64,000 nt of DNA from a phage (GCA_017003895.1 GCA_017003895.1_4520.1), one strand, 5' to 3'. Numbered from the stretch's first letter, positions 1,895-64,000 are shown. The notes: generated by a model from the sequence alone, not told the origin. Program-made: numbers and translations.

Positions 1895-3313
1895 TTATGG
1901 ATATGTATAGATGATACCAGTTTCCAAAGCAGTTTTATGGATGATATATCCATTACGCGATTCTTGAACATCAACTTCTGGATAATCTTTCATCATCTTC
2001 TGGAGAGTGTAACGATGCAGGTAGTATTTACTATCTGGGTCGTCAATTTTCCAATCTTTACCTTCTTCAGTCATTTTTTGGATTTCATCCATAACCCACC
2101 AACCGCACCAGATGTAAGCTGAAGTACGATGTGGAAGAGGATGGACATAAGGCAATTCACCTTCTGGTTCCGGAGCAACTTTATCAGTTACCTGAACTTG
2201 ACCCGTCGTTTTAACTGTTTTACTATCATAATCGGTTGCAGTAACAACTGCAGTAACTTCAATAGTTTGACTTCCAACAGATGAGGTATCAACTGTATAC
2301 ACATTAGTCGATCCTTCTACAGGAGAAGAATCTTTCTTCCATGAATAAGTAATTTGTGCCGATTCTGGTGCACCAGTCACATTAGCAGTAAATGTAGCCG
2401 AAGCATCTTGCTGGACATTAATAGAAGGAGGAGTCAATGTAACCTGTGGATTCATTGTCTTCTTATTAACAGTCAGTGACACTTCATTAGAAGTAACTTC
2501 TTTTGCATTATAATCATCAGCAGTTACTTGGGCTACGCATTTAATTCTTTTGACTCCATTCGTAGTTGGAGTATAGTTAAATGTAGAGTTAGTTTCTCCA
2601 CCAACTTGAGAATCATCTACATACCATTGATATGTAGCAGACGCTCCAGCAGGTTGAGAAGCTAAGGCCGCAGTAAATTTAACCGGGGTTCCAATTACTC
2701 CAGCTGAAGGACTAGCAGGAGTTACTGCCAATGTAGTGGTCTGCGTCTTTTTATTAACAGTCAGTGATACTTCATTAGAAGTAACGCTCAGCGCATCATA
2801 ATTTGCTGCAGTTACTTGAGCTACACACTTGATTTTTTTAACTCCGCTTGTGGTAGGAGTGTAATTGAATGTAGCGCTAGTCGCTTCGCTCACAGGAGAA
2901 TCGTCAACATACCATTGATACGTAGCAGATGCACCTGATGGCTGCGAAGCCAAAGCAGCAGTAAATTTAACAGCTGTTCCAATTACTCCTGCTGGAGGAC
3001 TATTGGGAGTTACGGCTAATGTAGTCGTCTGAGTTTTGTTTTTGACTGTAATAGTTGTAGTAGCTTCTGCTGTTTCAGCATCAGTATCTGGGACTGTGTT
3101 TGTTGCAACTACTTTAATAGTCTTTTGTCCAGCAGGACCCTTTAATACATAACTAAAAGTTGCTTCAGCTCCATCTTGTGGAGCATCGTCTACAGTCCAA
3201 GCATAAGTAATAGTTCCACCTCCAGTTTCACCACTGGGCGTAGCAGTAAACTGCTTAGTCTGATCTATAACTCCAGTAGGCGTTTTAGGAGTTATATCAA
3301 CTGTAAAAGCCAT
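1895..3313 (-). CDS. hoc: highly immunogenic outer capsid protein Hoc with four Ig-like domains
   Basis: 472 aa; Thr/Ser-rich Ig-like repeats (…YQWYVDDS…FNYTPTT…KCVAQVTA…), conserved C-terminal capsid-binding segment; position next to inh. Confidence 0.8.
   Translation of the reverse strand: MAFTVDITPKTPTGVIDQTKQFTATPSGETGGGTITYAWTVDDAPQDGAEATFSYVLKGPAGQKTIKVVATNTVPDTDAETAEATTTITVKNKTQTTTLAVTPNSPPAGVIGTAVKFTAALASQPSGASATYQWYVDDSPVSEATSATFNYTPTTSGVKKIKCVAQVTAANYDALSVTSNEVSLTVNKKTQTTTLAVTPASPSAGVIGTPVKFTAALASQPAGASATYQWYVDDSQVGGETNSTFNYTPTTNGVKRIKCVAQVTADDYNAKEVTSNEVSLTVNKKTMNPQVTLTPPSINVQQDASATFTANVTGAPESAQITYSWKKDSSPVEGSTNVYTVDTSSVGSQTIEVTAVVTATDYDSKTVKTTGQVQVTDKVAPEPEGELPYVHPLPHRTSAYIWCGWWVMDEIQKMTEEGKDWKIDDPDSKYYLHRYTLQKMMKDYPEVDVQESRNGYIIHKTALETGIIYTYP
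2462..3040. repeat. tandem direct repeat (2 x ~288 bp) inside hoc encoding two near-identical Ig-like domains
   Basis: DNA blocks starting ~2462 and ~2750 are highly similar (e.g. ttattaacagtcagtga(c/t)acttcattagaagtaac at both); the protein shows two ~95 aa repeats KKTQTTTLAVTP…VSLTVNKK. Confidence 0.8.
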
Positions 3314-3322
3314 AAGTTATCC

Positions 3323-3991
3323 TTATTTTAATGTTACGAAAGAAGAATTACGAGTTTCGCGAATTAGAACTGATCCATCGCGATTAATATAATAAATTAA
3401 GCTAAATAGTGTTTGGTGTGCCGACGCATGTTCAAAACTGGTTGGGCGAGATTTCCAATCAGGTGTTTCGGCTATCCATTGATAAATCCACCAAGGAACA
3501 GTAACATACCCTGGGCCTTTGCCTAATTTAATGAGTGTAGGACTAAAATTTTCAGGCAGAACAAATTTTACTTCTTTATTTACTTCTGGCTCAGGCTCTT
3601 TTTCAGATTCAACAACCTGAGTAATTGCTTCTTCAAATTTATCATGGTCGAATTCTATTTCTTGTTCGACAACTTCTAATACTTCAACTTGTTCTGCCGG
3701 AGAATCAAACAACAGAATAGCTTCTTCTTTAACTTCTTCGTTGGTGAAATTAACACCGTCCACATCATCTGCGGCAGTAATTAAATCGGTGATAGATAAT
3801 CCATCAGTTTCAGGTAATGGTTCATTAGCCAGTGCGTTAAGAGCTTCTTCGATATCAATAACAATATTATCGAATGATTTTGTTTTCTTAACACTAATAC
3901 CAAATTGTGCCGCATATTCAAACAGTTTAGCTTTGGCTTCCTTTTTATCAGAGAGAGCACGTAACTCTTCAATATAGTCTTTATCGATCAT
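3323..3991 (-). CDS. inh: inhibitor of prohead protease (Inh-like)
   Basis: 222 aa acidic protein immediately upstream of hoc, same position and size as T4 Inh. Confidence 0.6.
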   Translation of the reverse strand: MIDKDYIEELRALSDKKEAKAKLFEYAAQFGISVKKTKSFDNIVIDIEEALNALANEPLPETDGLSITDLITAADDVDGVNFTNEEVKEEAILLFDSPAEQVEVLEVVEQEIEFDHDKFEEAITQVVESEKEPEPEVNKEVKFVLPENFSPTLIKLGKGPGYVTVPWWIYQWIAETPDWKSRPTSFEHASAHQTLFSLIYYINRDGSVLIRETRNSSFVTLK

Positions 3992-4004
3992 GGTATTTCC
4001 TCAT

Positions 4005-4012
4005 TATAAATA
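4005..4012 (+). promoter_or_regulatory. late promoter (TATAAATA) for uvsW
   Basis: Exact TATAAATA 30 nt upstream of the uvsW ATG in the inh/uvsW divergent spacer. Confidence 0.5.
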
Positions 4013-4041
4013 TAACTATATTTATTACATGGTAATTTGAC

Positions 4042-5556
4042 ATGACTGACATTAAAGTACATTTTTATGATTTTAGTCACGTGCGCATTGAATGCGACGA
4101 AAGTACGTTTTACGAACTTCGTGACTTTTTTAGCTTTGAAGCTGACGGGTATAAATTTAACCCAAAATATCGCTATGGGCAATGGGATGGTAGAATTCGT
4201 CTTTTAGATTACAACCGTTTGTTACCATATGGGCTTGTAGGACAAATAAAAAAGTTCTGTAACAATATGAGTTATTCTGTATGGATTGACCCTAAAATCT
4301 TTGAGACTGAAGACCTTACCAGGGAAGATTTTGACGCATGGCTTTCTAAACAAGAAATTTATTCAGGCAACACCAAAATCGAACCACATTGGTATCAAAA
4401 AGATGCAGTATATGAAGGACTAGTTAATCGTCGTCGAATTTTAAACCTTCCAACATCAGCAGGTAAATCACTAATCCAAGCACTTTTAGCTCGATATTAT
4501 CTAGAGAACTATGAAGGTAAAATTCTCATTATCGTCCCTACAACAGCATTGACAACCCAGATGGCTAATGATTTTGTCGATTATCGCTTGTTTAGTCATT
4601 CGATGATTAAGAAAATCGGCGGTGGTGCTGATAAAGCGGACAAATCCAAAAACGACGCTCCAATTATTGTTGGCACATGGCAAACGGTAGTTAAGCAGCC
4701 TAAAGAATGGTTCTCTCAGTTCGGTATGATGATGAACGATGAATGCCACTTAGCAACAGGCAAAAGTATTTCTTCAATAATCTCAGGATTAAATAATTGC
4801 ATGTTTAAATTCGGTTTATCTGGCTCATTAAGAGACGGAAAAGCCAATGTAATGCAGTACGTAGGTATGTTCGGCGAAATCTTCCGTCCTGTTAGCACGT
4901 CTAAATTAATGGAAGACGGACAGGTAACTGAGCTTAAGATTAATAGTATTTTCCTTCGTTATCCGGACGAATTCGCCATTAAATTAAAAGGTAAAACATA
5001 CCAAGAAGAAGTTAAAATTATTACCGGACTAAAACGACGTACAAAGTGGATTGCTCAACTTTCAGTCAAATTAGCTAAGAAAGACGAGAACGCCTTTGTA
5101 ATGTTTAAACACGTTACACATGGTAAAGAAATATTTGAAGCTATTAAAGAGCTTGGATACGAAAAAGTTTATTACGTATCAGGTGAAGTTGATACCGAAA
5201 CACGTAACGCGCTTAAAGTCATGGCAGAAAATGGTAAAGGCATTATTATTGTCGCATCATATGGAGTATTCTCTACTGGTATTTCAGTCAAGAATCTTCA
5301 TCATGTTATTTTTGCCCATGGTGTTAAATCAAAAATTATCGTACTTCAAACCGTAGGTCGCGTGCTTCGTAAGCATGGTTCTAAAGCTGTTGCTACAGTT
5401 TGGGATCTCATCGATGACGCAGGTGTAAAACCTAAATCATTAAATACTAAAAAGAAGTATACTCATCTTAATTACTTGTTAAAACACGGTATTGATCGTA
5501 TCCAACGTTACGCTGATGAGAAATTTAACTATGTAATGAAAACAATTAATTTATAA
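4042..5556 (+). CDS. uvsW: UvsW RNA-DNA/DNA-DNA helicase (SF2)
   Basis: 504 aa; Walker A (PTSAGKS), DEAH-like box (MMMNDECH), helicase C motifs; N-terminus MTDIKVHFYDFSHVRIE as in T4 UvsW. Confidence 0.9.
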   Translation: MTDIKVHFYDFSHVRIECDESTFYELRDFFSFEADGYKFNPKYRYGQWDGRIRLLDYNRLLPYGLVGQIKKFCNNMSYSVWIDPKIFETEDLTREDFDAWLSKQEIYSGNTKIEPHWYQKDAVYEGLVNRRRILNLPTSAGKSLIQALLARYYLENYEGKILIIVPTTALTTQMANDFVDYRLFSHSMIKKIGGGADKADKSKNDAPIIVGTWQTVVKQPKEWFSQFGMMMNDECHLATGKSISSIISGLNNCMFKFGLSGSLRDGKANVMQYVGMFGEIFRPVSTSKLMEDGQVTELKINSIFLRYPDEFAIKLKGKTYQEEVKIITGLKRRTKWIAQLSVKLAKKDENAFVMFKHVTHGKEIFEAIKELGYEKVYYVSGEVDTETRNALKVMAENGKGIIIVASYGVFSTGISVKNLHHVIFAHGVKSKIIVLQTVGRVLRKHGSKAVATVWDLIDDAGVKPKSLNTKKKYTHLNYLLKHGIDRIQRYADEKFNYVMKTINL

Positions 5557-22784: not shown

Positions 22785-23093
22785 TTACATAAGAAGCAAA
22801 CGTTCTACCGGAGTACCATCAACCGAAATTACTTTATCAAGGCGGAAAGAACGCCACTGACCTAACTTGGTATCGAATGCTCGAACTGATTCACGAGGTT
22901 CAGAACGAACTTCTGATGCCGGATTGTTATTTTCATATTTGACTTCAAGTTCATCGCGAGAAGCAAACATAGTGCGTACCTCACCGTTAGCCTTTTCAAA
23001 TACAACACAATGAACGCCTACAGACAGAATAGTTTTAATACGTTCACGAAGAACCATAGTTTCTTGTTCAGTTAAAATCATATTATTCACCAC
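22785..23093 (-). CDS. hypothetical protein (31.1 position)
   Basis: 102 aa ORF between gene 31 and cd. Confidence 0.55.
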   Translation of the reverse strand: MVNNMILTEQETMVLRERIKTILSVGVHCVVFEKANGEVRTMFASRDELEVKYENNNPASEVRSEPRESVRAFDTKLGQWRSFRLDKVISVDGTPVERLLLM

Positions 23094-23664
23094 AAAAGTT
23101 TCGGATTTGTTCCCAATTCAGAGAACGAAGATTATTACGAGAGTACTGAATTACTTCAATACCGGCTTGTTTTAGAATGTCTGCCCAATTTTCAGGAGAT
23201 CGGTCGTATAATTCTGCATATACAACCTTTTTAATACCTGACTGTGTAATAGCTTTAGTGCAATCAGGACACGGAGAAAGCGTCGTATATAACGTAGCAC
23301 CTTCAATAGAATTACCTTTACGAGCTGCAAATAAAATTGCATTCAGTTCAGCATGGATTTCATTATTAGCAGACCATGCACTATGAGCGGCCCGATGTTC
23401 TTTAGCCAAAACAAAATTATCCACCCGTCCAAATGCTGTAGTGCCTTCTTTATGCCCAGCAACGATGACCGGGCTTGGTTTATTCTTCAACCAACCGTTT
23501 TCGGATGCATGTTCGCAACAGTTTGTACCACCTGAAGGAGAGCCATTATAACCTGTAGAAATAATGCGTCCATCTTTTTCAATGACGGCACCAACTTTCC
23601 ATGAACAACATTTTGATTCTTGAGAAATCAAATAAGCAATTTGAAGATATGTGCTAGCTTTCAT
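23083..23664 (-). CDS. cd: dCMP deaminase
   Basis: 193 aa; cytidine/deoxycytidylate deaminase zinc motifs HAELNAI … PCPDC. Confidence 0.9.
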   Translation of the reverse strand: MKASTYLQIAYLISQESKCCSWKVGAVIEKDGRIISTGYNGSPSGGTNCCEHASENGWLKNKPSPVIVAGHKEGTTAFGRVDNFVLAKEHRAAHSAWSANNEIHAELNAILFAARKGNSIEGATLYTTLSPCPDCTKAITQSGIKKVVYAELYDRSPENWADILKQAGIEVIQYSRNNLRSLNWEQIRNFCGE

Positions 23665-24656
23665 TATTGAACCTTATTAATATAAGTTAACAGCTCTTTA
23701 GTTTGTTCCCAACTGATGCACGCATCGGTAACGGAAACGCCATAGGACATATTATCAGAAATTTTTTGATTTCCTTCATGTAGGAATGATTCTATCATAA
23801 TTCCTTTGACCAAATCATTAGCTGCTAAATTTTTACCAATACCAATTTGATTGCTATAATGCCCAGCAGCGTTTGCATGGCTACAGTCAACCATTACATA
23901 ATGATTCAGACCTACTGCACTTGCTTTGTTAGAAGCTTCTTGAATATCAGAAGAATGATAGTTCGGGCCGTTGGTCCCGCCACGCAATACGATATGCGTA
24001 TTCTGATTACCTTCAGCTTCAACAATGCCTACAGTACCATCGACGTCCATACCCATATACCGATGAGGCCTGGCGGCACTATACATCGCGTCTGTAGCTA
24101 CTTTAATAGAACCATTGGTTGCGTTCTTGAAGCCTACGCACATCGGTAGACCTGAAGCAATTTCACGATGTGTCTGACTTTCAGTCGTACGGGCGCCAAT
24201 AGCAACCCATGAGAAAATACCAGAAAGATACTTAATCGTGAATGGGTCTAATACTTCAGTTGCTAATGGAAGTCCCATACGTAGAAGTTTACGACACAAT
24301 GTTCGTGCAACTATAAGACCGTGGTTCATATCAAAACTTCCGTCAAGATATGGATCATTTACAAGACCTTTCCAACCTACGGTAGTTCGAGGCTTTTCAA
24401 AATAAACGCGCATCACTAACAGAACATTAGGAAGACGAGTTTGAAGTTCAGCCAGACGTTTGCCGTATTCAACAGCAGCAATAGGGTCATGAATTGAACA
24501 AGGACCTACAACGATAAGTTTGCGTGGGTCTTCACCGTTCATAATCGAATTAACTTGTTCGCGATGAGAAGCCACTTGTGATGCGTAAGCTTCCGACAAA
24601 GGAATAATCTCAGCCAGTTCTTTTGGAGAAATAAGTTTTCTGACGACAGGTAACAT
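23664..24656 (-). CDS. 3-deoxy-D-arabino-heptulosonate-7-phosphate (DAHP) synthase, class I (AroG/F/H-like)
   Basis: 330 aa; signature blocks GPCSIHD, RVYFEKPRTTVGWKGL, GARTTESQ, VGFKN, LRGG, DCSHAN, EGNQ, TDAC; stop overlaps the cd start codon. Confidence 0.9.
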   Translation of the reverse strand: MLPVVRKLISPKELAEIIPLSEAYASQVASHREQVNSIMNGEDPRKLIVVGPCSIHDPIAAVEYGKRLAELQTRLPNVLLVMRVYFEKPRTTVGWKGLVNDPYLDGSFDMNHGLIVARTLCRKLLRMGLPLATEVLDPFTIKYLSGIFSWVAIGARTTESQTHREIASGLPMCVGFKNATNGSIKVATDAMYSAARPHRYMGMDVDGTVGIVEAEGNQNTHIVLRGGTNGPNYHSSDIQEASNKASAVGLNHYVMVDCSHANAAGHYSNQIGIGKNLAANDLVKGIMIESFLHEGNQKISDNMSYGVSVTDACISWEQTKELLTYINKVQ

Positions 24657-56299: not shown

Positions 56300-56563
56300 T
56301 CATATCTCAACTTCCACGAGTTCCATATATCCTTTGTTGATAACCTCTTTAAGGTCTTTAGAAAGAATGACATTAAAATGGTCATTCATATGTCCATTAA
56401 CCAGACGAGTTATTTCGGCTTCAGATGACATATAAGGCACGTCCGAGTCCCAATGAGATAGTCCCAAATGGGTATAAATCATCCCTTCGTCGTCTGCAGT
56501 GTTGTACATTGAAACAAATTCGCCTGTTACTTTATGTTTTGCGTAGAAAAATTTAAATTTCAT
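56300..56563 (-). CDS. hypothetical protein
   Basis: 87 aa; early promoter at 56590-56619. Confidence 0.45.
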   Translation of the reverse strand: MKFKFFYAKHKVTGEFVSMYNTADDEGMIYTHLGLSHWDSDVPYMSSEAEITRLVNGHMNDHFNVILSKDLKEVINKGYMELVEVEI

Positions 56564-56589
56564 AATGTTATCCTCTTTTAGATAGGACT

Positions 56590-56619
56590 ACTATATCATA
56601 GTCCTACTTAGTTGTAAAC
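56590..56619 (-). promoter_or_regulatory. early promoter (hairpin-embedded) for the ORF starting at 56563
   Basis: GTTTAC (rc 56614-56619), 18 nt, TATAGT (rc 56590-56595); overlaps inverted repeat taggacta…tagtccta. Confidence 0.45.
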
Positions 56620-56631
56620 ACTTTTATGAAA

Positions 56632-57189
56632 TTAAAGATGAAGATACCACCCGTTGTAGTTGCTCTTGCGGACGATTTTCTTTAGGTCTTCATGGTCTCC
56701 CACGAACTTTATAGAATAAGAGAAGACGTCGGGTGAGGTTTCTTTGACATCTAATATAATAATGCAATCTGCGACTCGATGGTTCAAGAAGGGCCCTATA
56801 TTGATTCCATTACCACCCGGATAATCGCCGCTGTATCCTGTGGTAACCGAAATCCATTTAGAATCTACCTGGTGCGTCTTGACTTCGACACGCAACCCGC
56901 AGTATTTAGGATGAGCTAACACGTCCCATGCATACGTGTACGGGTCTTCTACGTCTTCAATACCTTTATTAACATATCCATCTAGCCAATTTGCTACTAC
57001 ATACTCTGCAAAGACTGCAACCTTACAACGTCGAACTACATCTTCTTTGTTTTGATCAGGATTTTGGCTCAGGGAATATCGAGCGGTGTCAGCAATCTTC
57101 ACCTTCATTTCACTAGTCAAAAACTCATTCGACAGGATAAATGTCGGAAGATTCTTCAGTCTCAACAGTCCCAAGTTCGTCTTTACCAT
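56632..57189 (-). CDS. denB: putative endonuclease IV (DenB-like), 185 aa
   Basis: Start set at internal Met preceded by a GAGG RBS; 185 aa equals T4 DenB length and the gene sits two ORFs from rIIB; assignment by position and size only. Confidence 0.45.
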   Translation of the reverse strand: MVKTNLGLLRLKNLPTFILSNEFLTSEMKVKIADTARYSLSQNPDQNKEDVVRRCKVAVFAEYVVANWLDGYVNKGIEDVEDPYTYAWDVLAHPKYCGLRVEVKTHQVDSKWISVTTGYSGDYPGGNGINIGPFLNHRVADCIIILDVKETSPDVFSYSIKFVGDHEDLKKIVRKSNYNGWYLHL

Positions 57190-57412
57190 AGATACCTCTG
57201 ATGTGTAGTTCGCCAAAATAAATGCGGTCACCTTCTTCAAGATATTCTGCATCTACCGGTGGGATTTCAATAACAACTTCGTCGCATTCTAACCAGCCGT
57301 AGTGTGCATCACCAGGATGTTTTACCAATTTAGCACAATAAACTGATTTACACTTATGATGACCACGAAGATTAGCAATTTTGGATTCTGATACGTCAAA
57401 TGGATGAATCAT
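57125..57412 (-). CDS. hypothetical protein (denB.1 position)
   Basis: 95 aa; AGGGG RBS; 3' end overlaps the denB-like start. Confidence 0.4.
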   Translation of the reverse strand: MIHPFDVSESKIANLRGHHKCKSVYCAKLVKHPGDAHYGWLECDEVVIEIPPVDAEYLEEGDRIYFGELHIRGIYGKDELGTVETEESSDIYPVE

Positions 57413-57420
57413 AATTACCC

Positions 57421-57448
57421 CTAAAGAAAAAAGGGGACCGAAGTCCCC
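57421..57448 (-). terminator. rho-independent terminator after rIIB
   Basis: GGGGAC cgaa GTCCCC (57433-57448), then TTTTTT on the minus strand. Confidence 0.65.
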
Positions 57449-57453
57449 AATTA

Positions 57454-58389
57454 TTATTCTGCAAATAATTCAGTAACGTCTGAAATTACTTCATACCGAC
57501 AAGTACGCATCTTAGCATCGCCATAGTCAACTGGGATGGATACAACATCACGTGGATGAACTTTAACCTTAACAACTTTATCTGAGCTAGAACCAAAGTA
57601 ACGAATATATGATTTAGCACAAACATGTAGACCACGGGAGCAGGTTTGAGTATCATCATCGTTAACACGAGTACGAGGCATTGAAACAACTTTACCAGGC
57701 GAGTTATCAAATGTGCCACTATAGCAATCTAAATAGTCTTTACGAACTACTTTCCATGCATAGAAATACCCATCTTCAGTGATTTCAATATCGTTTGCAA
57801 CCAAGAAGTCGAATAAACGTTGTACAGCTTTTTCGCTTGGGTTTTCTAACAGGTTTTCAAGGAACGGCAGGTAGAATTTAAAGTCTTCGCCTTTTTCCAT
57901 GGAATCAATAATACGGTTAACCAGTCCTGAACGAATTTCTATACCTTGATAAAATAAACTACCACCTTCAATAGTAACATTACCATCAACAAACTTACTA
58001 ATAGCTTTCTTGATGTTAATAAGTTCGACAGCTTTACTAAGGTTTCCTGCGACCAAATTAGCTTTAATTTCTTCAAAATTTGCATGACTTGATGGGGTCG
58101 CATTGTATGCTACGCGTCCTTCAATGATTGAAATAAATTTAGATGACGCGTTCCATACTATTTCAGGACGGTGTCCGCCGATAATAGGTTCATCATTTTC
58201 TGGGACCTGTTCTTCGTCTTCAAATTCAGCTGCTTTCTCTTCAGCTTTAAAATTCTTAACAATCTTACGAAGAGTATCTGTTGAAATGTCAAAGTAATCG
58301 GCAATTTCTTTACGGGTCCATTTGCCTGATTCAACCAGCCCGTAAGCTTCTAACTGTTCTTCTTGGGACAAGCATTTGATATTGTACAT
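57454..58389 (-). CDS. rIIB: rIIB membrane-associated protein
   Basis: 311 aa; MYNIKCLSQEEQLEAY… and C-terminal …GKVVSMPRTRVNDDDTQTCSRGLHVC… as in T4 rIIB. Confidence 0.9.
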   Translation of the reverse strand: MYNIKCLSQEEQLEAYGLVESGKWTRKEIADYFDISTDTLRKIVKNFKAEEKAAEFEDEEQVPENDEPIIGGHRPEIVWNASSKFISIIEGRVAYNATPSSHANFEEIKANLVAGNLSKAVELINIKKAISKFVDGNVTIEGGSLFYQGIEIRSGLVNRIIDSMEKGEDFKFYLPFLENLLENPSEKAVQRLFDFLVANDIEITEDGYFYAWKVVRKDYLDCYSGTFDNSPGKVVSMPRTRVNDDDTQTCSRGLHVCAKSYIRYFGSSSDKVVKVKVHPRDVVSIPVDYGDAKMRTCRYEVISDVTELFAE

Positions 58390-58398
58390 AATGTTTCC

Positions 58399-60612
58399 TT
58401 ATTTGGCCGCTTCCACGGCCTTCATGAATTTAACGATTTGAGCGACCTGTTCTTTGGAAAGAGTACCACGTCGTCCCATGTATTCTGACACAATATGATA
58501 ATTGGTTTCGAATTCAATAACCATTTTATCATCATTATCGTAAGCATTATCTTTAAGCTTATCGAAAATTTTAGCACATAATTCTAACTTCTTATTCAGG
58601 TCTCTGTTATCAGCACCTGCGAATCGATTCCATCCCCAGCGATTATTTACTGTTGAGAGTTTTGCAAAGTCTTTACTGATTTCTTTGTTCTTAGAGCTAA
58701 AATACTTACTAAGGAAGTTAAGCTCTTCATTACGAGTAATATGGTTTAGATAGGGCTGTGCTCTACGACTTGGTGATACATACTCATCATAATCTACTTT
58801 ATCGATTAGCGTAATATAGTCATTAATTGATTTTTCGAACAAGCATTCTACTTCGCCAAGTTTACGAACTTTCTTAGCAATCTGTGGGCGAACTACAGTG
58901 AACTCTTTAATACCTGACAAATCAGCAATACGAGTCAAGAAATTAGAGTCATAGTTTAACCAACCTTTATCTGCGACAAGACATTCAGCATTAGAACGAT
59001 TACGAATTACAACATAACCTTGAATCTCATCAGCTTTACTAGCCGGAATAAAGAGATCTTCTGATACCCAAACATCGTTTTCATTCTTAAAGAACCGATG
59101 AGCACTTGGGGATTTAGGACGAGGCTGCGATGAACGTTCTTTAACTTCAATCCATGGTTTAACTAATGCAAGAATTTCAGAGGTCTTATAAAATTTAAGG
59201 CTATCACCAGCGAAAATAACCTTTAATCGTTCCAGAAGTTTCATTGCAACTTCATCTTCCGGGTTAATGAATAATACGCTACTACCATATCCAGAAGGAA
59301 CCTTATCAACGAGTGTTGATGCATCTGTGGAAGTCAAAGCATCGTTCAGAGCACGCATCATTGGTACGCGGCCTTTCACATCATCAATAACAATATCAAT
59401 ATGCTTACGACTAATACCTAGCAGGCTATTAATTGAAATAGTTGTAGACGAGCTTCCGCTTTCACGAATACGACGAAGTCGTGGGTCTGAAACGATATCA
59501 TATACAACACCAAGGTTGCACCATTCAGGTCCCATTTTAAAACGTTTGTACAACTCAGAATAAGTTAGTTGTTCTTTAGAATATTTCAGTGATTCAATAT
59601 TAGAACCGGCTTTTTCCATGTATTTACGAGCAGAGTAACCAAGAGAATCGATTTCACGGAATACATGACGTGGATATTCACAATCAATCCATTTCTTAGA
59701 ATCTTCAGCAAATAATTTTGCATCGATTTCTGCAACGCGTTTATGGATATTTGCTACTGTACGTTTATCAAATGACAATGCTTCACGAGACGGGGCTACA
59801 TCTAGTTCACCCATAGGGAATTTAATATAAGCTGTAGTGCATCGCGTCATCATCCATGTTTGTTCTTTAATAACACTTCCGATTGGATATACAATACCAC
59901 CATAAACAGCCATGATATTACCACGTTCACCCCATGGAGCTTCCTTGGCTAAATATACATCGTCAAATTCAGGAAAGTATTTAATATCTTTAACACCGCG
60001 AACTTCTGCAATATCACCTAGAGGACGCATAACATAAGCAATTTCGGATGCGAACTTTTCAAAATCTTCTGGGTTAACAGGCACAACTACTTCAACGCCG
60101 GTTCGGTCATCAGGACCCATCTTATCTACAAAGGTTGGCTTAATTTGTGGACCACTGTCATCTTGATAAATTACATAACCACGAACTTCACCATTATGAT
60201 AAGAAGTAATGTTAAACGTATCAGTATATGCTAATGGAGCTTTAGAACCGAGACCGAAACCACCAATGAAATCGTTACTCGATGTTTTAGTTGAAGCAAA
60301 ATATGAGTTATAGATTCCTGGCTCTTCGTCGTTACCTCGAATGGTGAAATCACTCATACCAGGACCAAAGTCTCGAACTACAAAACGTGGGTCTAAACGA
60401 CCTGGAGCCTGAACAATAAACTTATCAGTGCAACCATTAAGAATTTGTCCATCGATACAGTTTGTGATTAATTCACGTACACAAGCCAATTCTTTGTTTG
60501 TATAAAGGTCATTAGACAAAATCTTATAAACTTTGCTATTGCCTTGAATAGTGAATGCTGTGCTCTTACCGCCTGAACCAATAATCGTTTCTTTAGCCGT
60601 TTCAATAATCAT
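58399..60612 (-). CDS. rIIA: rIIA protein
   Basis: 737 aa; N-terminal GHKL-type ATPase-like region; adjacent to rIIB. Confidence 0.88.
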   Translation of the reverse strand: MIIETAKETIIGSGGKSTAFTIQGNSKVYKILSNDLYTNKELACVRELITNCIDGQILNGCTDKFIVQAPGRLDPRFVVRDFGPGMSDFTIRGNDEEPGIYNSYFASTKTSSNDFIGGFGLGSKAPLAYTDTFNITSYHNGEVRGYVIYQDDSGPQIKPTFVDKMGPDDRTGVEVVVPVNPEDFEKFASEIAYVMRPLGDIAEVRGVKDIKYFPEFDDVYLAKEAPWGERGNIMAVYGGIVYPIGSVIKEQTWMMTRCTTAYIKFPMGELDVAPSREALSFDKRTVANIHKRVAEIDAKLFAEDSKKWIDCEYPRHVFREIDSLGYSARKYMEKAGSNIESLKYSKEQLTYSELYKRFKMGPEWCNLGVVYDIVSDPRLRRIRESGSSSTTISINSLLGISRKHIDIVIDDVKGRVPMMRALNDALTSTDASTLVDKVPSGYGSSVLFINPEDEVAMKLLERLKVIFAGDSLKFYKTSEILALVKPWIEVKERSSQPRPKSPSAHRFFKNENDVWVSEDLFIPASKADEIQGYVVIRNRSNAECLVADKGWLNYDSNFLTRIADLSGIKEFTVVRPQIAKKVRKLGEVECLFEKSINDYITLIDKVDYDEYVSPSRRAQPYLNHITRNEELNFLSKYFSSKNKEISKDFAKLSTVNNRWGWNRFAGADNRDLNKKLELCAKIFDKLKDNAYDNDDKMVIEFETNYHIVSEYMGRRGTLSKEQVAQIVKFMKAVEAAK

Positions 60613-60624
60613 ATTTTTCTCTCA

Positions 60625-60825
60625 TCACAAGTTACGTTTAAAAATTTCTGCTACTTCAAGAAGTTCTTCTTTAGTAGCTGTATCGGTTTGTATTTTATAT
60701 CGAATTTCTTTAAAGCGTTCTTTAAATGACTCTGCTGATTCGATATCAAAAAATCTTTGGATAAGTCGGAATTCCCGGAGCACCGCTTTATCAAAAAGTT
60801 CCAAGTCCACGTTATACGTTCTCAT
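60625..60825 (-). CDS. hypothetical protein (rIIA.1 position)
   Basis: 66 aa ORF upstream of rIIA. Confidence 0.5.
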   Translation of the reverse strand: MRTYNVDLELFDKAVLREFRLIQRFFDIESAESFKERFKEIRYKIQTDTATKEELLEVAEIFKRNL

Positions 60826-60917
60826 AATATTCTCTTCAGTAGATTGCTAGGGCACTATTACTAAAGACCATATAATTTATCATCTTATGTGTAATAGTGC
60901 CTCAGGCTATTCAGGAT

Positions 60918-62018
60918 TTACGCTGTGAAGATTTTATCCCACATCGCAACAACTGCATCTCGATTATACTTCTTCCATACTGCTTCAGCACGTTTAACTC
61001 GAGCTTCGTATGTGTCAGTGAATTCTAATACAGCTTTTGTGTAAAGCGCAACTACTTCTTTCTTAGGAGTGGAGGAATCAATTTCTACACGCACAGTATC
61101 TGGGTCGTATTCGAATGTCGCATGAGGATAATCCTTAAAAACTAACTGGATTACAGGGACACCTTTAGAGATGGCTTCAATAGAACTATTCTCTACCGTA
61201 CCTGTGTCAGGACATGTATTAATAAGTGCTTTAGCTGTTTTAAGACGTTCCATGATTTCACTGTGTGGAGCATCAATAATAACAGGATATTTAGCTGGTG
61301 GTGCCCATTTGCTTGGACAATAACCAATACCATTTTCGCCTAGTGCTTTAATTGCTTCAAGAGCAACATCAGTGCGACGCATCTTAGTGTCATAACGTTG
61401 AGCACTAATAATCAAATCAGTTGCCGGGAGAACTTCTGGCTTTTCAGACAAACAAATAACCGGGTAGTCATCAGGTTCAAATAATGGATTTTCACGCCAG
61501 TAGTCATAATCAATTTTGTCAGTAAGAGCTGAAGTCATATGACAATATTTACGTTCAAATTCACGGAATGCTTTAGTAGGAGCATAGCTCTTCCCACCGT
61601 TCTTGTGAATCTGGATAGTCTGATCCCAAATTTGAACAATACCACGAGACACAGGTTCAAACGGCGTAGCCATAAAATTCTTATGAACTTTAGAGAGTCC
61701 AGCATCTTTAATTGCCTGAACGGTTAGTTTAGTCGGTTCCATAGTAACAACAAAATCGTATTCATGGATGCCGGCTAGTTCAACAATCTTACGAGCCATA
61801 GTATAACTCATACCTAGACTGAATTTAGTCAGATGACCAACAGGATGGTGTGTAACTTTCCAGTCACCAAACGTGTCATTATCAAAGCCGATATAATCAA
61901 TATCAGCACCGATGGACACAAGATATTTCAACACATTTAAATGTACTGCTTCAAGTCCACCTTGTACACGGTCAGGATTAAATGGGACTGCACGAGATGG
62001 GATAAACATAACTTTCAT
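60918..62018 (-). CDS. putative GT-B-fold (GT4-like) glycosyltransferase
   Basis: 366 aa; N-terminal MKVMFIP…GGLEAV (GT4-like donor-domain start) and C-terminal E-x7-E-like block …ENSSIEAISKGVPVI…; sits between rIIA.1 and gene 39. Confidence 0.6.
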   Translation of the reverse strand: MKVMFIPSRAVPFNPDRVQGGLEAVHLNVLKYLVSIGADIDYIGFDNDTFGDWKVTHHPVGHLTKFSLGMSYTMARKIVELAGIHEYDFVVTMEPTKLTVQAIKDAGLSKVHKNFMATPFEPVSRGIVQIWDQTIQIHKNGGKSYAPTKAFREFERKYCHMTSALTDKIDYDYWRENPLFEPDDYPVICLSEKPEVLPATDLIISAQRYDTKMRRTDVALEAIKALGENGIGYCPSKWAPPAKYPVIIDAPHSEIMERLKTAKALINTCPDTGTVENSSIEAISKGVPVIQLVFKDYPHATFEYDPDTVRVEIDSSTPKKEVVALYTKAVLEFTDTYEARVKRAEAVWKKYNRDAVVAMWDKIFTA

Positions 62019-62029
62019 AATTAAGCCTT

Positions 62030-62060
62030 ATTAAAATTAAAATGAAGCTCCCGAAGGAGC
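62030..62060 (-). terminator. stem-loop/terminator between gene 39 and the glycosyltransferase gene
   Basis: GCTCC cgaa GGAGC (62047-62060) abutting the gene 39 stop, T-rich tract on the minus strand. Confidence 0.5.
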
Positions 62061-63878
62061 TTAGGACATCCATTCTTTACGAAGTTCTGAATCATCACCC
62101 ATCAACATTTCAAATAGTTCTTTCCAATTTTCAGGAAGTTTAACTACGTCGTACACAGGGTTCTGAATCATTTCACGATATTCTGACTTTTCAAGGGAGC
62201 CTAATCCCTTGATGTATCGAATACTATGCTTAGGCAGTGTATCTTTAACTTCTTCATACTCAGCTACAGTATAAAACCATTTTTGAGTTTTGCCAATTTG
62301 TGCAATAATTACAGGCGTTTTAACAAAGCGAATACGTCCCTGTTCAAACAATTCAGGCCAATTACTAAAGAAAGCAAGCAAAGCCGGATAAATACTTCCA
62401 AGACCGTCATGATCGGCATCGGTCATAATTGCAATATTACGATAGTTCGTATTCTCTGCCTTTTCGCCAAGAATAAGACCTGTGATAGCACAGATATCAA
62501 AGAGCTCTTTGTTCTTCATCATATCAGCATATGACATACCCCAGCTATTCATCACCTTACCACGTAACGGGAATCCACCGTGTAGTTCACGGTCACGAAC
62601 ATCAATGAGATAACCAATTGCCGAATCACCTTCTGTTAAGAACAATGTCGTATCTGCATCTTTACCGCATTGGTTAGCTTTAATATGCTTATGAACCTTA
62701 GCTTTAGTTGCCTTTTTAGCTGCTTTAGTTTCTGCAGCCTTTTCTGCTGCCAATTTACGAGCTAATGCTGCTTCAACAATAGGCATAATCAAGGCTTCGT
62801 TTTTAAGAAGTGCCTGAGCAATTTTCTTAGCATCTAATTGGATATGATTACGAATATCACCATACGTTGACGTTAAACGTTCTTTAGTCTGAGAATCAAA
62901 ACGCATATTGCTCATGTCTCTAATAAACATCAACATTGTGAGGCATTCTTTAACACGAGCTTTAGTGACTTCAATACCCTTATATTTCTTTTTAATACCT
63001 GGCAAAAGATGTTCGCAGATATCATCCATTACACATTCAACATGATGACCACCATTTTTAGTATGGATGTTATTCACATAAGTTAAATGACGGAAGCCAT
63101 CTGGTGATGTTGTGAATGCTATAGAGACTTTATCATTTTCTTGAATGATGTTATCTTCACCAAATTGTTTAGCAAATCGTTTAAAATTACCATCAACCTT
63201 TTTACCATTAAATGTGAACTTGATATCAGGATAAACGACTGCCAATGTTTGAAGTCGGTCTAAAGTAATATCTAAATAAATTTGAGATAAATTATGCTCT
63301 TCAAATGAAGAGAAATCAGGAGTGAAGATTACTTTAGTGCCTTTACCTTTAGATTTCTTAGAAGACCATGATTTGTTTTCCATTCCGTTTGAACAGTTAA
63401 CAGTGATTTCGTTTTCGCCATCTGACGTGATGCCTGTAAACAACGTAGAGAAGATATTAGTTAAACTACTCCCGACGCCGTTCATACCACCAGTCTTGCG
63501 TTCAGAGTCATCACCAAAGTTACCACCGGCCTTTGGAATAGTCCAGGCTGCTACAGGCCCAGGAATTTGTTCACCTGTTTGGTCAGTAACTAAACCTTGA
63601 GGAATACCACGCCCGTTATCTTCCACCGAAACTTGATTATTTTTAATTTGCACATCAATTTTATTTGCAAACTTAAATGATGTACGAATAGCTTCATCAA
63701 CCGAGTTGTCAATAATCTCATCGATTAATTTAACCAGACCAGGAACATATTCAACTTGTTGATATTTACCAAACAAAAAACGCTCATGTGCTTCTTTAGC
63801 AGAAGAACCAATATACATACCACTACGTTTCTTAATATGTTCTACATCTGACAATACCTTAATTTCATTTTTAATCAT
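62061..63878 (-). CDS. 39: DNA topoisomerase II large subunit (colinear gene 39+60 equivalent)
   Basis: 605 aa; GyrB-like ATPase and TOPRIM regions in one uninterrupted ORF (T4 splits this into gp39 ~516 aa and gp60 ~160 aa). Confidence 0.88.
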   Translation of the reverse strand: MIKNEIKVLSDVEHIKKRSGMYIGSSAKEAHERFLFGKYQQVEYVPGLVKLIDEIIDNSVDEAIRTSFKFANKIDVQIKNNQVSVEDNGRGIPQGLVTDQTGEQIPGPVAAWTIPKAGGNFGDDSERKTGGMNGVGSSLTNIFSTLFTGITSDGENEITVNCSNGMENKSWSSKKSKGKGTKVIFTPDFSSFEEHNLSQIYLDITLDRLQTLAVVYPDIKFTFNGKKVDGNFKRFAKQFGEDNIIQENDKVSIAFTTSPDGFRHLTYVNNIHTKNGGHHVECVMDDICEHLLPGIKKKYKGIEVTKARVKECLTMLMFIRDMSNMRFDSQTKERLTSTYGDIRNHIQLDAKKIAQALLKNEALIMPIVEAALARKLAAEKAAETKAAKKATKAKVHKHIKANQCGKDADTTLFLTEGDSAIGYLIDVRDRELHGGFPLRGKVMNSWGMSYADMMKNKELFDICAITGLILGEKAENTNYRNIAIMTDADHDGLGSIYPALLAFFSNWPELFEQGRIRFVKTPVIIAQIGKTQKWFYTVAEYEEVKDTLPKHSIRYIKGLGSLEKSEYREMIQNPVYDVVKLPENWKELFEMLMGDDSELRKEWMS

Positions 63879-63920
63879 GTTGTCTCCTCGTTATGAAGGT
63901 ATTCTATCATCCGAAATCTA

Positions 63921-63947
63921 AAGCAAAAAGGGCCGAAGCCCTTATTT
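63921..63947. terminator. bidirectional-type terminator upstream of gene 39
   Basis: aaaaa GGGC cgaa GCCC ttattt, flanked by A- and T-runs. Confidence 0.5.
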
Positions 63948-64000
63948 AAATTTAATTTTCTGAAGTGCATCAATTGCAGCTAAACGCCCTTGTTCACTTT
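63942..64000 (-). CDS. 3' end of an upstream minus-strand gene (partial)
   Basis: Only one reverse frame is open to the window edge (…SEQGRLAAIDALQKIKFK*); stop at 63942-63944 abuts a terminator. Confidence 0.3.
   Translation of the reverse strand, partial: SEQGRLAAIDALQKIKFK

Follow-up and report, generated by a model that had tools for sequence, protein, structure and literature searches.

A Mosigvirus glycosyltransferase gene between rIIA.1 and gene 39 probably encodes a second DNA arabinofuranosyltransferase

The DNA analysed in this work, a stretch of 64 kb referred to below as the window, is a segment of a Mosigvirus (RB69-like) genome of the phapec2-like branch, and not RB69 itself. 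The nearest records are those of phages PTK and AlbertHofmann (Bas47). When parts of the AlbertHofmann record (12.0-62.0 and 68.7-78.5 kb) were compared with window positions 179-50118 and 56501-64000, both sequences were found to be collinear, with 96-98% identity and no large indel. In the 1.8 kb around the ORF that is the subject of this study, identity to phages PTK, AlbertHofmann (Bas47) and KMB38 is 98.7%. The features of the locus are as follows:

58399..60612, minus strand: rIIA, 737 aa (phrog_612, E=9e-225)
60625..60825, minus strand: rIIA.1-type ORF, 66 aa, the downstream neighbour (phrog_1683, E=3.5e-34); named rIIA.1 in RB69
60918..62018, minus strand: the ORF under study, 366 aa, with an ATG start, found by ORF calling and beginning MKVMFIPSRAVPFNPDRVQGGLEAV
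61149..61193, minus strand: ENSSIEAISKGVPVI, residues 276-290 of the ORF, a predicted nucleotide-sugar-binding helix of the C-terminal domain, with E276 and E281 invariant
61395..61406, minus strand: SAQR, residues 205-208, where the C-terminal Rossmann domain begins, with Q207 and R208 invariant
61944..61961, minus strand: GGLEAV, residues 20-25, an N-terminal Gly-rich loop after strand beta1, with G20, G21 and L22 invariant
62045..62062, minus strand: hairpin AAGCTCCTTCGGGAGCTT, with a 7-bp stem and a TTCG loop, starting within the gene 39 stop codon
62061..63878, minus strand: topoisomerase II large subunit, fused gene 39+60, 605 aa, the upstream neighbour in the direction of transcription (phrog_543, E=2e-287)

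An earlier note on this DNA had described a 366-aa ORF between the rIIA.1-type ORF and the topoisomerase gene, carrying GGLEAV and the ENSSIEAISKGVPVI block, and ORF calling confirms that description. The note also stated that this slot holds gene 60 and mobA in T4 and that gene 60 is fused here to gene 39. Both statements are correct. In T4 the same interval reads rIIA.1, 60, 60.1, mobA, 39, and a PHROG search of the topoisomerase large subunit matched the gp60-type phrog_7229 to residues 452-605; as the C-terminal ~150 residues are those of a gp60-type protein, genes 39 and 60 are fused. The order rIIA.1, ORF, fused gene 39 is that of a Mosigvirus-type locus, and is identical in RB69, HY126 and AlbertHofmann.

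The 42-nt gap between the gene 39 stop codon and the ATG of the ORF (position 62018) contains the hairpin and, after it, a stretch rich in T and an AAGG Shine-Dalgarno sequence. The hairpin may be tentatively viewed as a terminator-like or RNA-stability element, a putative assignment, since chance alone would be expected to yield one site of this kind in the 2-kb scan. A terminator is annotated in the interval between gene 39 and the ORF in PhAPEC2 records. As for recent horizontal acquisition of the ORF, its GC content (0.39-0.40) differs unremarkably from that of the flanks (0.35-0.38) and gives no particular sign of it.

The ORF is a real gene: PHROG 8302, whose label is ‘unknown function’, matches it over positions 1-366 of 366 (E=4e-221), it is found in more than 150 Mosigvirus genomes, and it is under purifying selection, as indicated by a comparison with RB69 in which 58 codons differ synonymously and 9 nonsynonymously, none of them at a family-invariant residue. 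A tblastn search of the phages collection detected 155 Escherichia/Shigella phage records that carry it at an identity of at least 95%.

The RB69-type transferase next to rIIA that the earlier note had mentioned is ORF003c of Thomas et al. 2018 (PMC6024577), which lies at the same locus and is 97.5% identical. Both RB69 ORF003c/gp3 (NP_861693.1) and the ORF are 366 aa long and sit on the same strand between rIIA.1 and gene 39; tblastn and codon comparison yielded 9 substitutions, and the differences are allelic only. The AlbertHofmann protein QXV75110, annotated as ‘putative hmC-arabinosyltransferase’, is one residue apart from the window protein (S191N). Database names for the ORF vary, and include ‘phosphatidylinositol mannosyltransferase’, ‘DNA alpha-glucosyltransferase’ and hmC glycosyltransferase. 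The glycosyltransferase of HY126 is ~98% identical; the ORF departs from the PDB sequence at 6 residues, none of which is invariant in the family. Crystal structures of the HY126 enzyme, apo (9IQZ) and in complex with UDP (9IR0), were released on 2025-07-16. These entries presumably come from the HY126 study by He et al. 2026 (Nat Chem Biol). Hence, the gene is not a new candidate, as the earlier note had suggested, but a published one: it received its name in 2018 and a new assignment in 2025-2026, its crystal structures date from July 2025 (PDB), and only mechanistic detail is left as novelty.

Two search rounds through 5.8 billion proteins gathered 10 family clusters in all, found in Mosigvirus, in Acinetobacter T4-like phages and in a few metagenomic contigs. 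Among annotated phage records the family is almost restricted to Mosigvirus and Acinetobacter phages, the exception being a distant homolog in 1 Tegunavirus record. By tblastn, one copy is present per Mosigvirus genome and two per Acinetobacter Lazarusvirus genome. The metagenomic homolog P0009 lies on a T4-like contig that also encodes a DNA ligase and DsbA; the contig is short, and pathway genes would fall beyond its reach.

Sequence profiles were of little help in classifying the protein. Pfam returned 0 families for the window ORF at E<=10 and nothing credible for 10 family members at E<=1, with neither Glycos_transf_1 (PF00534) nor Glyco_transf_4 (PF13439) among the matches; the sole match related to glycosyltransferases was PF20706 (GT4-conflict), seen in one member with E=0.0028. 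NCBIfam gave 0 matches for the ORF. When PDB sequences were searched by phmmer and with the family profile, only 9IQZ and 9IR0 were found, and no sequence bridge to other glycosyltransferases appeared. The earlier note had stressed that the protein is unlike the T4 alpha- and beta-glucosyltransferases (alpha-gt, beta-gt) in sequence, and this was borne out: each of the T4 enzymes had an hhalign probability below 1% against the family profile, and BLASTP produced no significant alignment of either with the ORF. Nor did hhalign find any relationship between the family profile and Bas47_0146, the AlbertHofmann counterpart of RB69 gp46:47. These hhalign results rule out that the ORF is a diverged copy of T4 alpha-gt, of T4 beta-gt or of the first arabinosyltransferase of the pathway.

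Since Pfam and NCBIfam do not recognise the ORF, its assignment as a GT-B/GT4-like enzyme holds only at the level of three-dimensional structure. The ORF has a GT-B fold that matches the solved UDP-bound HY126 structure. The AlphaFold model used was built on a 10-sequence family alignment; a 6-sequence alignment gave an unusable pLDDT of 57.9. A structure search placed GT4-type enzymes as the nearest relatives outside the family, namely sucrose-phosphate synthase (6KIH), BshA (3MBO/6N1X), PimA (2GEJ), MshA (3C4Q) and WaaG (2IV7), and the identity of the ORF to bacterial GT-B/GT4 neighbours is only 10-14%.

All 58 family-invariant columns of the family alignment are kept in the ORF. They include G20-G21-L22, R125, Q207-R208, D210, R214, K263 and T272-G-T-V-E276, and further along S279, E281-A-I-S, G286, P288, V289, H299, E303 and D305. 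Several of these residues had been aligned by Thomas et al. with substrate-binding residues of T4 alpha-gt (PMC6024577): Gly-20 with Gly-15, which contacts the beta-phosphate; an Arg numbered 207 with the phosphate-binding Arg-204; and Glu-281 with Glu-311, involved in ribose binding. The SAQRYD motif spans residues 205-210 of the ORF, and the Arg given as 207 by Thomas et al. probably corresponds to R208. In the AlphaFold model a helix is found at residues 277-284. The canonical hallmark of GT4 enzymes is an E-X7-E spacing. While bacterial GT4-type enzymes display it, E276 and E281 of the ORF (V-E-N-S-S-I-E) are arranged as E-X4-E, in a protein whose proposed acceptor is a sugar on DNA. The GT-B/GT4 class proposed in the earlier note stands, therefore, as far as structural neighbours are concerned, while Pfam and NCBIfam give no match and the E-X4-E spacing departs from the canonical one.

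The chemistry in which the ORF would participate has been revised in recent years. Thomas et al. 2018 reported arabinose in RB69 DNA, named the modified base ara-hmC, and nominated ORF003c as the transferase because HHpred related it to T4 alpha-gt and to enzymes of the GT4 type (PMC6024577). Lee et al. (NAR 2026) found that 5-hydroxycytosine (5hoC) in mono- and di-arabinosylated form takes the place of all cytosine in RB69 DNA, with arabinose joined by an ether link to C5 of 5-hydroxycytosine, and identified the disaccharide by NMR as beta-D-Araf-(1->3)-alpha-D-Araf-O5-dC; 5-hydroxy-dCMP is made by a thymidylate-synthase homolog (PMC13326640). Mosigvirus NP (AEM 2026) likewise has mono- and di-arabinosyl species with arabinose on 5-hydroxycytosine (PMC13390438). 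Altogether, membership of the ORF in an anti-restriction pathway of DNA sugar modification, as the earlier note had proposed, is supported, while the biochemical details have to be amended. The acceptor is not 5-hydroxymethylcytosine (hmC), given the base found in RB69 and NP (PMC13326640, PMC13390438), where no sugar linked to hmC is described for Mosigvirus DNA, and the Asn signature in the synthase of a relative, which T4 gp42 does not have. Donor and linkage, which had been regarded as unknown, are at hand: UDP-arabinofuranose is used and proposed, and the RB69 disaccharide has been solved (PMC13326640). Finally, instead of glycosylating the base itself, the ORF would act later, as the literature proposes that the second arabinose is placed onto an already arabinosylated base.

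In the published scheme, RB69 gp46:47 (DLP3 gp79) is the proposed first transferase and RB69 gp3 (DLP3 gp77) is proposed to give rise to the di-arabinosylated species; RB69p003 appears in Table 1 of that study as ‘beta-arabinosyltransferase 2’, without the mark ‘confirmed experimentally’ (PMC13326640). The second-step role of RB69 gp3 is thus a published proposal. Experiments with DLP3 proteins showed that gp76 and gp77, when combined, extend the sugar of RB69 DNA in vitro by one more Araf, with UDP-Araf as donor; each protein alone was inactive, the pair was shown making the third sugar only, and activity on 5hoC DNA was not observed (PMC13326640). Both proteins are full-length homologs of the ORF (gp77, XEO41443.1: 43% identity, E 7e-110; gp76, XEO41444.1: 41% identity, E 1e-99) and have all invariant motifs in common with it. 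Their genes are two tandem paralogs within the arabinosylation cluster, both required, and the product is a tri-arabinoside; in contrast, the single gene of Mosigvirus lies away from the cluster, in the rIIA-39 gap, and Mosigvirus DNA stops at two sugars.

The genomic context of family members points to the same pathway. In DLP3, gp76-gp77 adjoin a kinase-like gene, gp79, the synthase and UDP-Ara genes. An unrelated metagenomic contig carries a family member 41% identical, immediately followed by a gp79-type gene (45%) and a kinase-like gene (51%). Bas47_0146 and DLP3 gp79 share 46% identity; the ORF has no similarity to DLP3 gp79. In AlbertHofmann, the interval from uvsX to the DNA polymerase gene encodes a kinase-like protein, a gp79-type glycosyltransferase, a TS-family enzyme and UDP-arabinose genes, and the gene of the gp46:47-type transferase is ~22 kb apart from that of the ORF. 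As to the gene 42 and glucosyltransferase genes for which the earlier note had advised a search, AlbertHofmann does possess a gene-42-type homolog, but one with the signature of a 5-hydroxy-dCMP synthase: the TS-family enzyme reads MRSQNCAVVMQLD where T4 gp42 reads MRSNDVVFGFRND, and an Asn in the place that corresponds to D169 of ThyA is the published signature of that activity. At the T4 positions, no beta-gt is found beside the gene 42 position of AlbertHofmann, and the interval from gene 47 to gene 55 has no alpha-gt. The rest of the arabinosylation pathway maps outside the 64-kb window, and we infer from the sequences of close relatives that the phage of the window is likely to carry it. 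In T4, alpha-gt (GT72, PDB 1XV5/1Y6F) and beta-gt (GT63) transfer glucose to 5-hydroxymethylcytosine and are encoded at genomic positions different from that of the ORF, whose proposed reaction is the transfer of arabinofuranose onto a sugar attached to 5-hydroxycytosine.

On these grounds, we consider it probable that the ORF encodes a soluble GT-B DNA transferase that adds the second D-Araf, in a beta-1,3 linkage, onto mono-arabinosylated 5hoC. This interpretation fits the 97.5% orthology to RB69 ORF003c at the rIIA-39 locus and the single-residue distance to Bas47 QXV75110. It also fits the full-length homology to the DLP3 chain extenders, as opposed to the absence of homology to the first transferase (gp79/Bas47_0146), as well as the physical linkage of the family to the arabinosylation pathway in DLP3 and in the metagenomic contig. 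Lastly, the number of paralogs tracks chain length, one copy being associated with mono- and di-arabinosyl species and two copies with tri-arabinose. The pathway genes of AlbertHofmann, which has neither alpha-gt nor beta-gt at the T4 positions, and the strong purifying selection on the gene are also in its favour. We infer that the enzyme would perform the beta-1,3 second step alone, and on DNA rather than on the nucleotide.

On this probable reading, the reaction would run as follows. The first alpha-D-arabinofuranose would be supplied by the unrelated transferase encoded in the nucleotide-sugar cluster, ~22 kb away. The ORF product would then recognise alpha-Araf-O5-cytosine in duplex phage DNA, after replication. 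Its C-terminal Rossmann domain would hold the UDP-sugar, by means of the helix with E276 and E281 and of the region around Q207-R208, and its N-terminal domain, with the GGLE loop, would engage the DNA. UDP-Araf would donate another D-arabinofuranose, which would be attached at O3 of the one already present and so yield beta-D-Araf-(1->3)-alpha-D-Araf-O5-dC. Because virions hold both mono- and di-arabinosyl species, this step would be sub-stoichiometric. The bulkier disaccharide might provide extra protection from DNA-targeting host defences. The transferases designated Aat are, we assume, those that place arabinose on arabinose. According to a paper that cites Mahler et al. 2025, loss of ‘arabinosyltransferase Aat’ sensitised Bas46 to a defence system.

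The original proposal for RB69 ORF003c was a different one, in which the protein is the base-proximal first transferase and places arabinose directly onto the modified cytosine (hmC originally, 5hoC in current terms). The proposal arose from the HHpred result mentioned above (PMC6024577), and it survives in the annotation of the Bas47 protein; ORF003c is also the sole Mosigvirus protein that older profile methods perceived as a glycosyltransferase. This reading appears unlikely in view of later evidence: the base is 5hoC rather than hmC, and an unrelated glycosyltransferase (RB69 gp46:47, Bas47_0146) keeps its synteny with the 5-hydroxy-dCMP synthase throughout the arabinosylating phages, among them Thanatos, whose DNA is mono-arabinosylated (PMC13326640). 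No Shewanella record appears among the tblastn matches to the ORF family in the phages collection at E<=1e-3, as fits a mono-arabinosylated Thanatos that lacks the family. The inactivity of DLP3 gp76/gp77 on 5hoC DNA (PMC13326640) and the fact that the family has one copy fewer than there are sugars in the chain also argue against a first-step role. That the ORF contributes to both sugars, either as a processive or bifunctional enzyme or as the obligatory hetero-complex partner of the first transferase, seems quite unlikely as well. Dependence on a partner does exist in the family, as DLP3 gp76 and gp77 are active only together (PMC13326640), and with one member in Mosigvirus the partner would have to be either the protein itself (the PDB entries are multi-chain, up to chain H) or gp46:47. 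Yet RB69 and NP DNA stop at two sugars, no interaction with gp46:47 was found in the literature available, and the ORF and gp46:47 have no sequence relationship and are encoded ~22 kb from each other.

An activity unrelated to DNA, such as glycosylation of a host envelope lipid, of LPS or of a phage or host protein, might be suspected because the top structural neighbours from outside phages (PimA, WaaG, BshA, GtfA) act on lipids, LPS, small molecules and proteins, and because some GenBank records call the product a phosphatidylinositol mannosyltransferase. We regard such a target as highly improbable: among annotated phage records the family is almost confined to groups that are reported to arabinosylate their DNA, outside Mosigvirus it lies inside the arabinosylation cluster, and homologs act on DNA in vitro (PMC13326640); moreover, identity to the bacterial enzymes is as low as 10-14% and Pfam sees no glycosyltransferase family in the protein.

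Stereochemistry is a point on the other side of the balance for the assignment of the ORF as second arabinosyltransferase: its GT4 neighbours work with retention, and a beta (1,2-cis) furanoside is formed. The anomer of the donor decides if the reaction proceeds with retention or inversion. If the UDP-D-Araf donor were the alpha anomer, a GT4-like, classically retaining scaffold would be used for an inverting reaction, a scenario that we find rather doubtful. Were it nonetheless inverting, the combination of E-X4-E with a pocket for a sugar on DNA may define a mechanistically distinct GT-B subclass missed by Pfam/CAZy-style profiles. A related and likewise doubtful possibility is that the one enzyme of Mosigvirus modifies DNA sub-stoichiometrically and with a preference for certain sequence contexts, much as alpha-gt and beta-gt share the work in T4; if so, the mixture of mono- and di-arabinosyl species would be explained.

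The family is missed by Pfam, NCBIfam and the function labels of PHROG, and for this reason its members keep being flagged as unknown. An apt label would be Mosigvirus second DNA arabinofuranosyltransferase (RB69 gp3 / HY126 GT family), and the labels hmC glycosyltransferase, ‘DNA alpha-glucosyltransferase’ and ‘phosphatidylinositol mannosyltransferase’ should be dropped. Arabinosylation of 5-hydroxycytosine makes the DNA of RB69-type phages resistant to many restriction enzymes and to some CRISPR systems, and is of practical relevance for phage therapy and phage engineering.

The glycosyltransferase gene has a hairpin on one side and an inverted repeat on the other:

62045-62062, minus strand: hairpin AAGCTCCTTCGGGAGCTT, its perfect 7-bp stem capped by a TTCG tetraloop
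60826-60917: 92-nt spacer 3' of the glycosyltransferase ORF, with an inverted repeat

The hairpin begins inside the stop codon of gene 39, is followed by CATTTTAATTTTAA, and sits just ahead of the glycosyltransferase start. It is a candidate terminator-like or mRNA-stabilising element, with the proviso that chance alone should yield one site of this kind in the 2 kb scanned. On the other side of the gene, the inverted repeat of the spacer (GGCACTATTAC ... GTAATAGTGCC) surrounds an AT-rich stretch, ACATAAGATGATAAATTATATGGTCTTTA, and lies just upstream of the start of the rIIA.1-type ORF.

Comparison of orthologs revealed a discrepancy at residues 288-289. A family-invariant P288-V289 pair is common to the window, RB69, the close relative AlbertHofmann and the sequence of PDB 9IQZ, a crystal structure described as that of the HY126 enzyme, while the GenBank protein of HY126 (PP658200.1) reads L288-G289. 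The likely cause is either an erroneous sequence in the HY126 genome record or a crystallised construct that differs from that record.

The labels attached to the arabinosylation pathway in AlbertHofmann and in many other records are inconsistent or out of date. One example is the following TS-family enzyme:

AlbertHofmann 4278-4994: bas47_0147, labelled 'dCMP hydroxymethylase'

Despite this label, bas47_0147 carries the Asn signature of a 5-hydroxy-dCMP synthase. The glycosyltransferase itself appears as 'hypothetical protein', 'putative hmC-arabinosyltransferase', 'putative GDP-mannose-dependent alpha-(1-2)-phosphatidylinositol mannosyltransferase' or, in the HX01 RefSeq record and in Acinetobacter phages, 'DNA alpha-glucosyltransferase'. 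The rIIA.1-type ORF is frequently labelled 'rIIA lysis inhibitor'.

Two additional loci of the window are of note:

23664-24656, minus strand: full-length AroFGH-type DAHP synthase (3-deoxy-7-phosphoheptulonate synthase)
2457-3049: internal direct repeat (length about 305 nt, copies 78% identical, offset 288 nt)

Assignment of the first relies on TIGR00034 (429 bits, cutoff 173) and on Pfam DAHP_synth_1 (E=2e-75). The gene, a 'putative aldolase' in AlbertHofmann, lies immediately upstream of the dCMP deaminase gene (23083-23664), and T4 is not known to have a counterpart between cd and pseT. For a T4-like phage, a DAHP synthase is an unusual metabolic gene to carry; a tie to the arabinose pathway through erythrose-4-P or pentose-phosphate flux is pure speculation. 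The direct repeat falls inside the region that matches the AlbertHofmann hoc gene; it agrees with the tandem arrangement of Ig-like domains in Hoc and seems ordinary.

Divergent homologs of the glycosyltransferase (34-41% identity) were detected in two metagenomic contigs, at yet other sites of T4-like genomes:

L005 (JGI 3300045321 contig) 3040-4224: divergent homolog
L006 (Logan SRR26937416 contig) 450-1574: divergent homolog

One of them follows a DNA ligase...DsbA block, and the other is found immediately upstream of a gp79-type transferase. In Mosigvirus, about 22 kb separate the gene from the arabinosylation cluster. The gene appears to change places among the variable ('hyperplastic') segments of T4-like genomes.

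Among records of the phages collection, one with an organism name starting with 'Tegunavirus' has a homolog with less than 60% identity. Because this record exists, and because a homolog of the UDP-arabinose bifunctional gene has been reported in the Tegunavirus Yersinia phage TG1, tegunaviruses may also have multiply arabinosylated cytosine.
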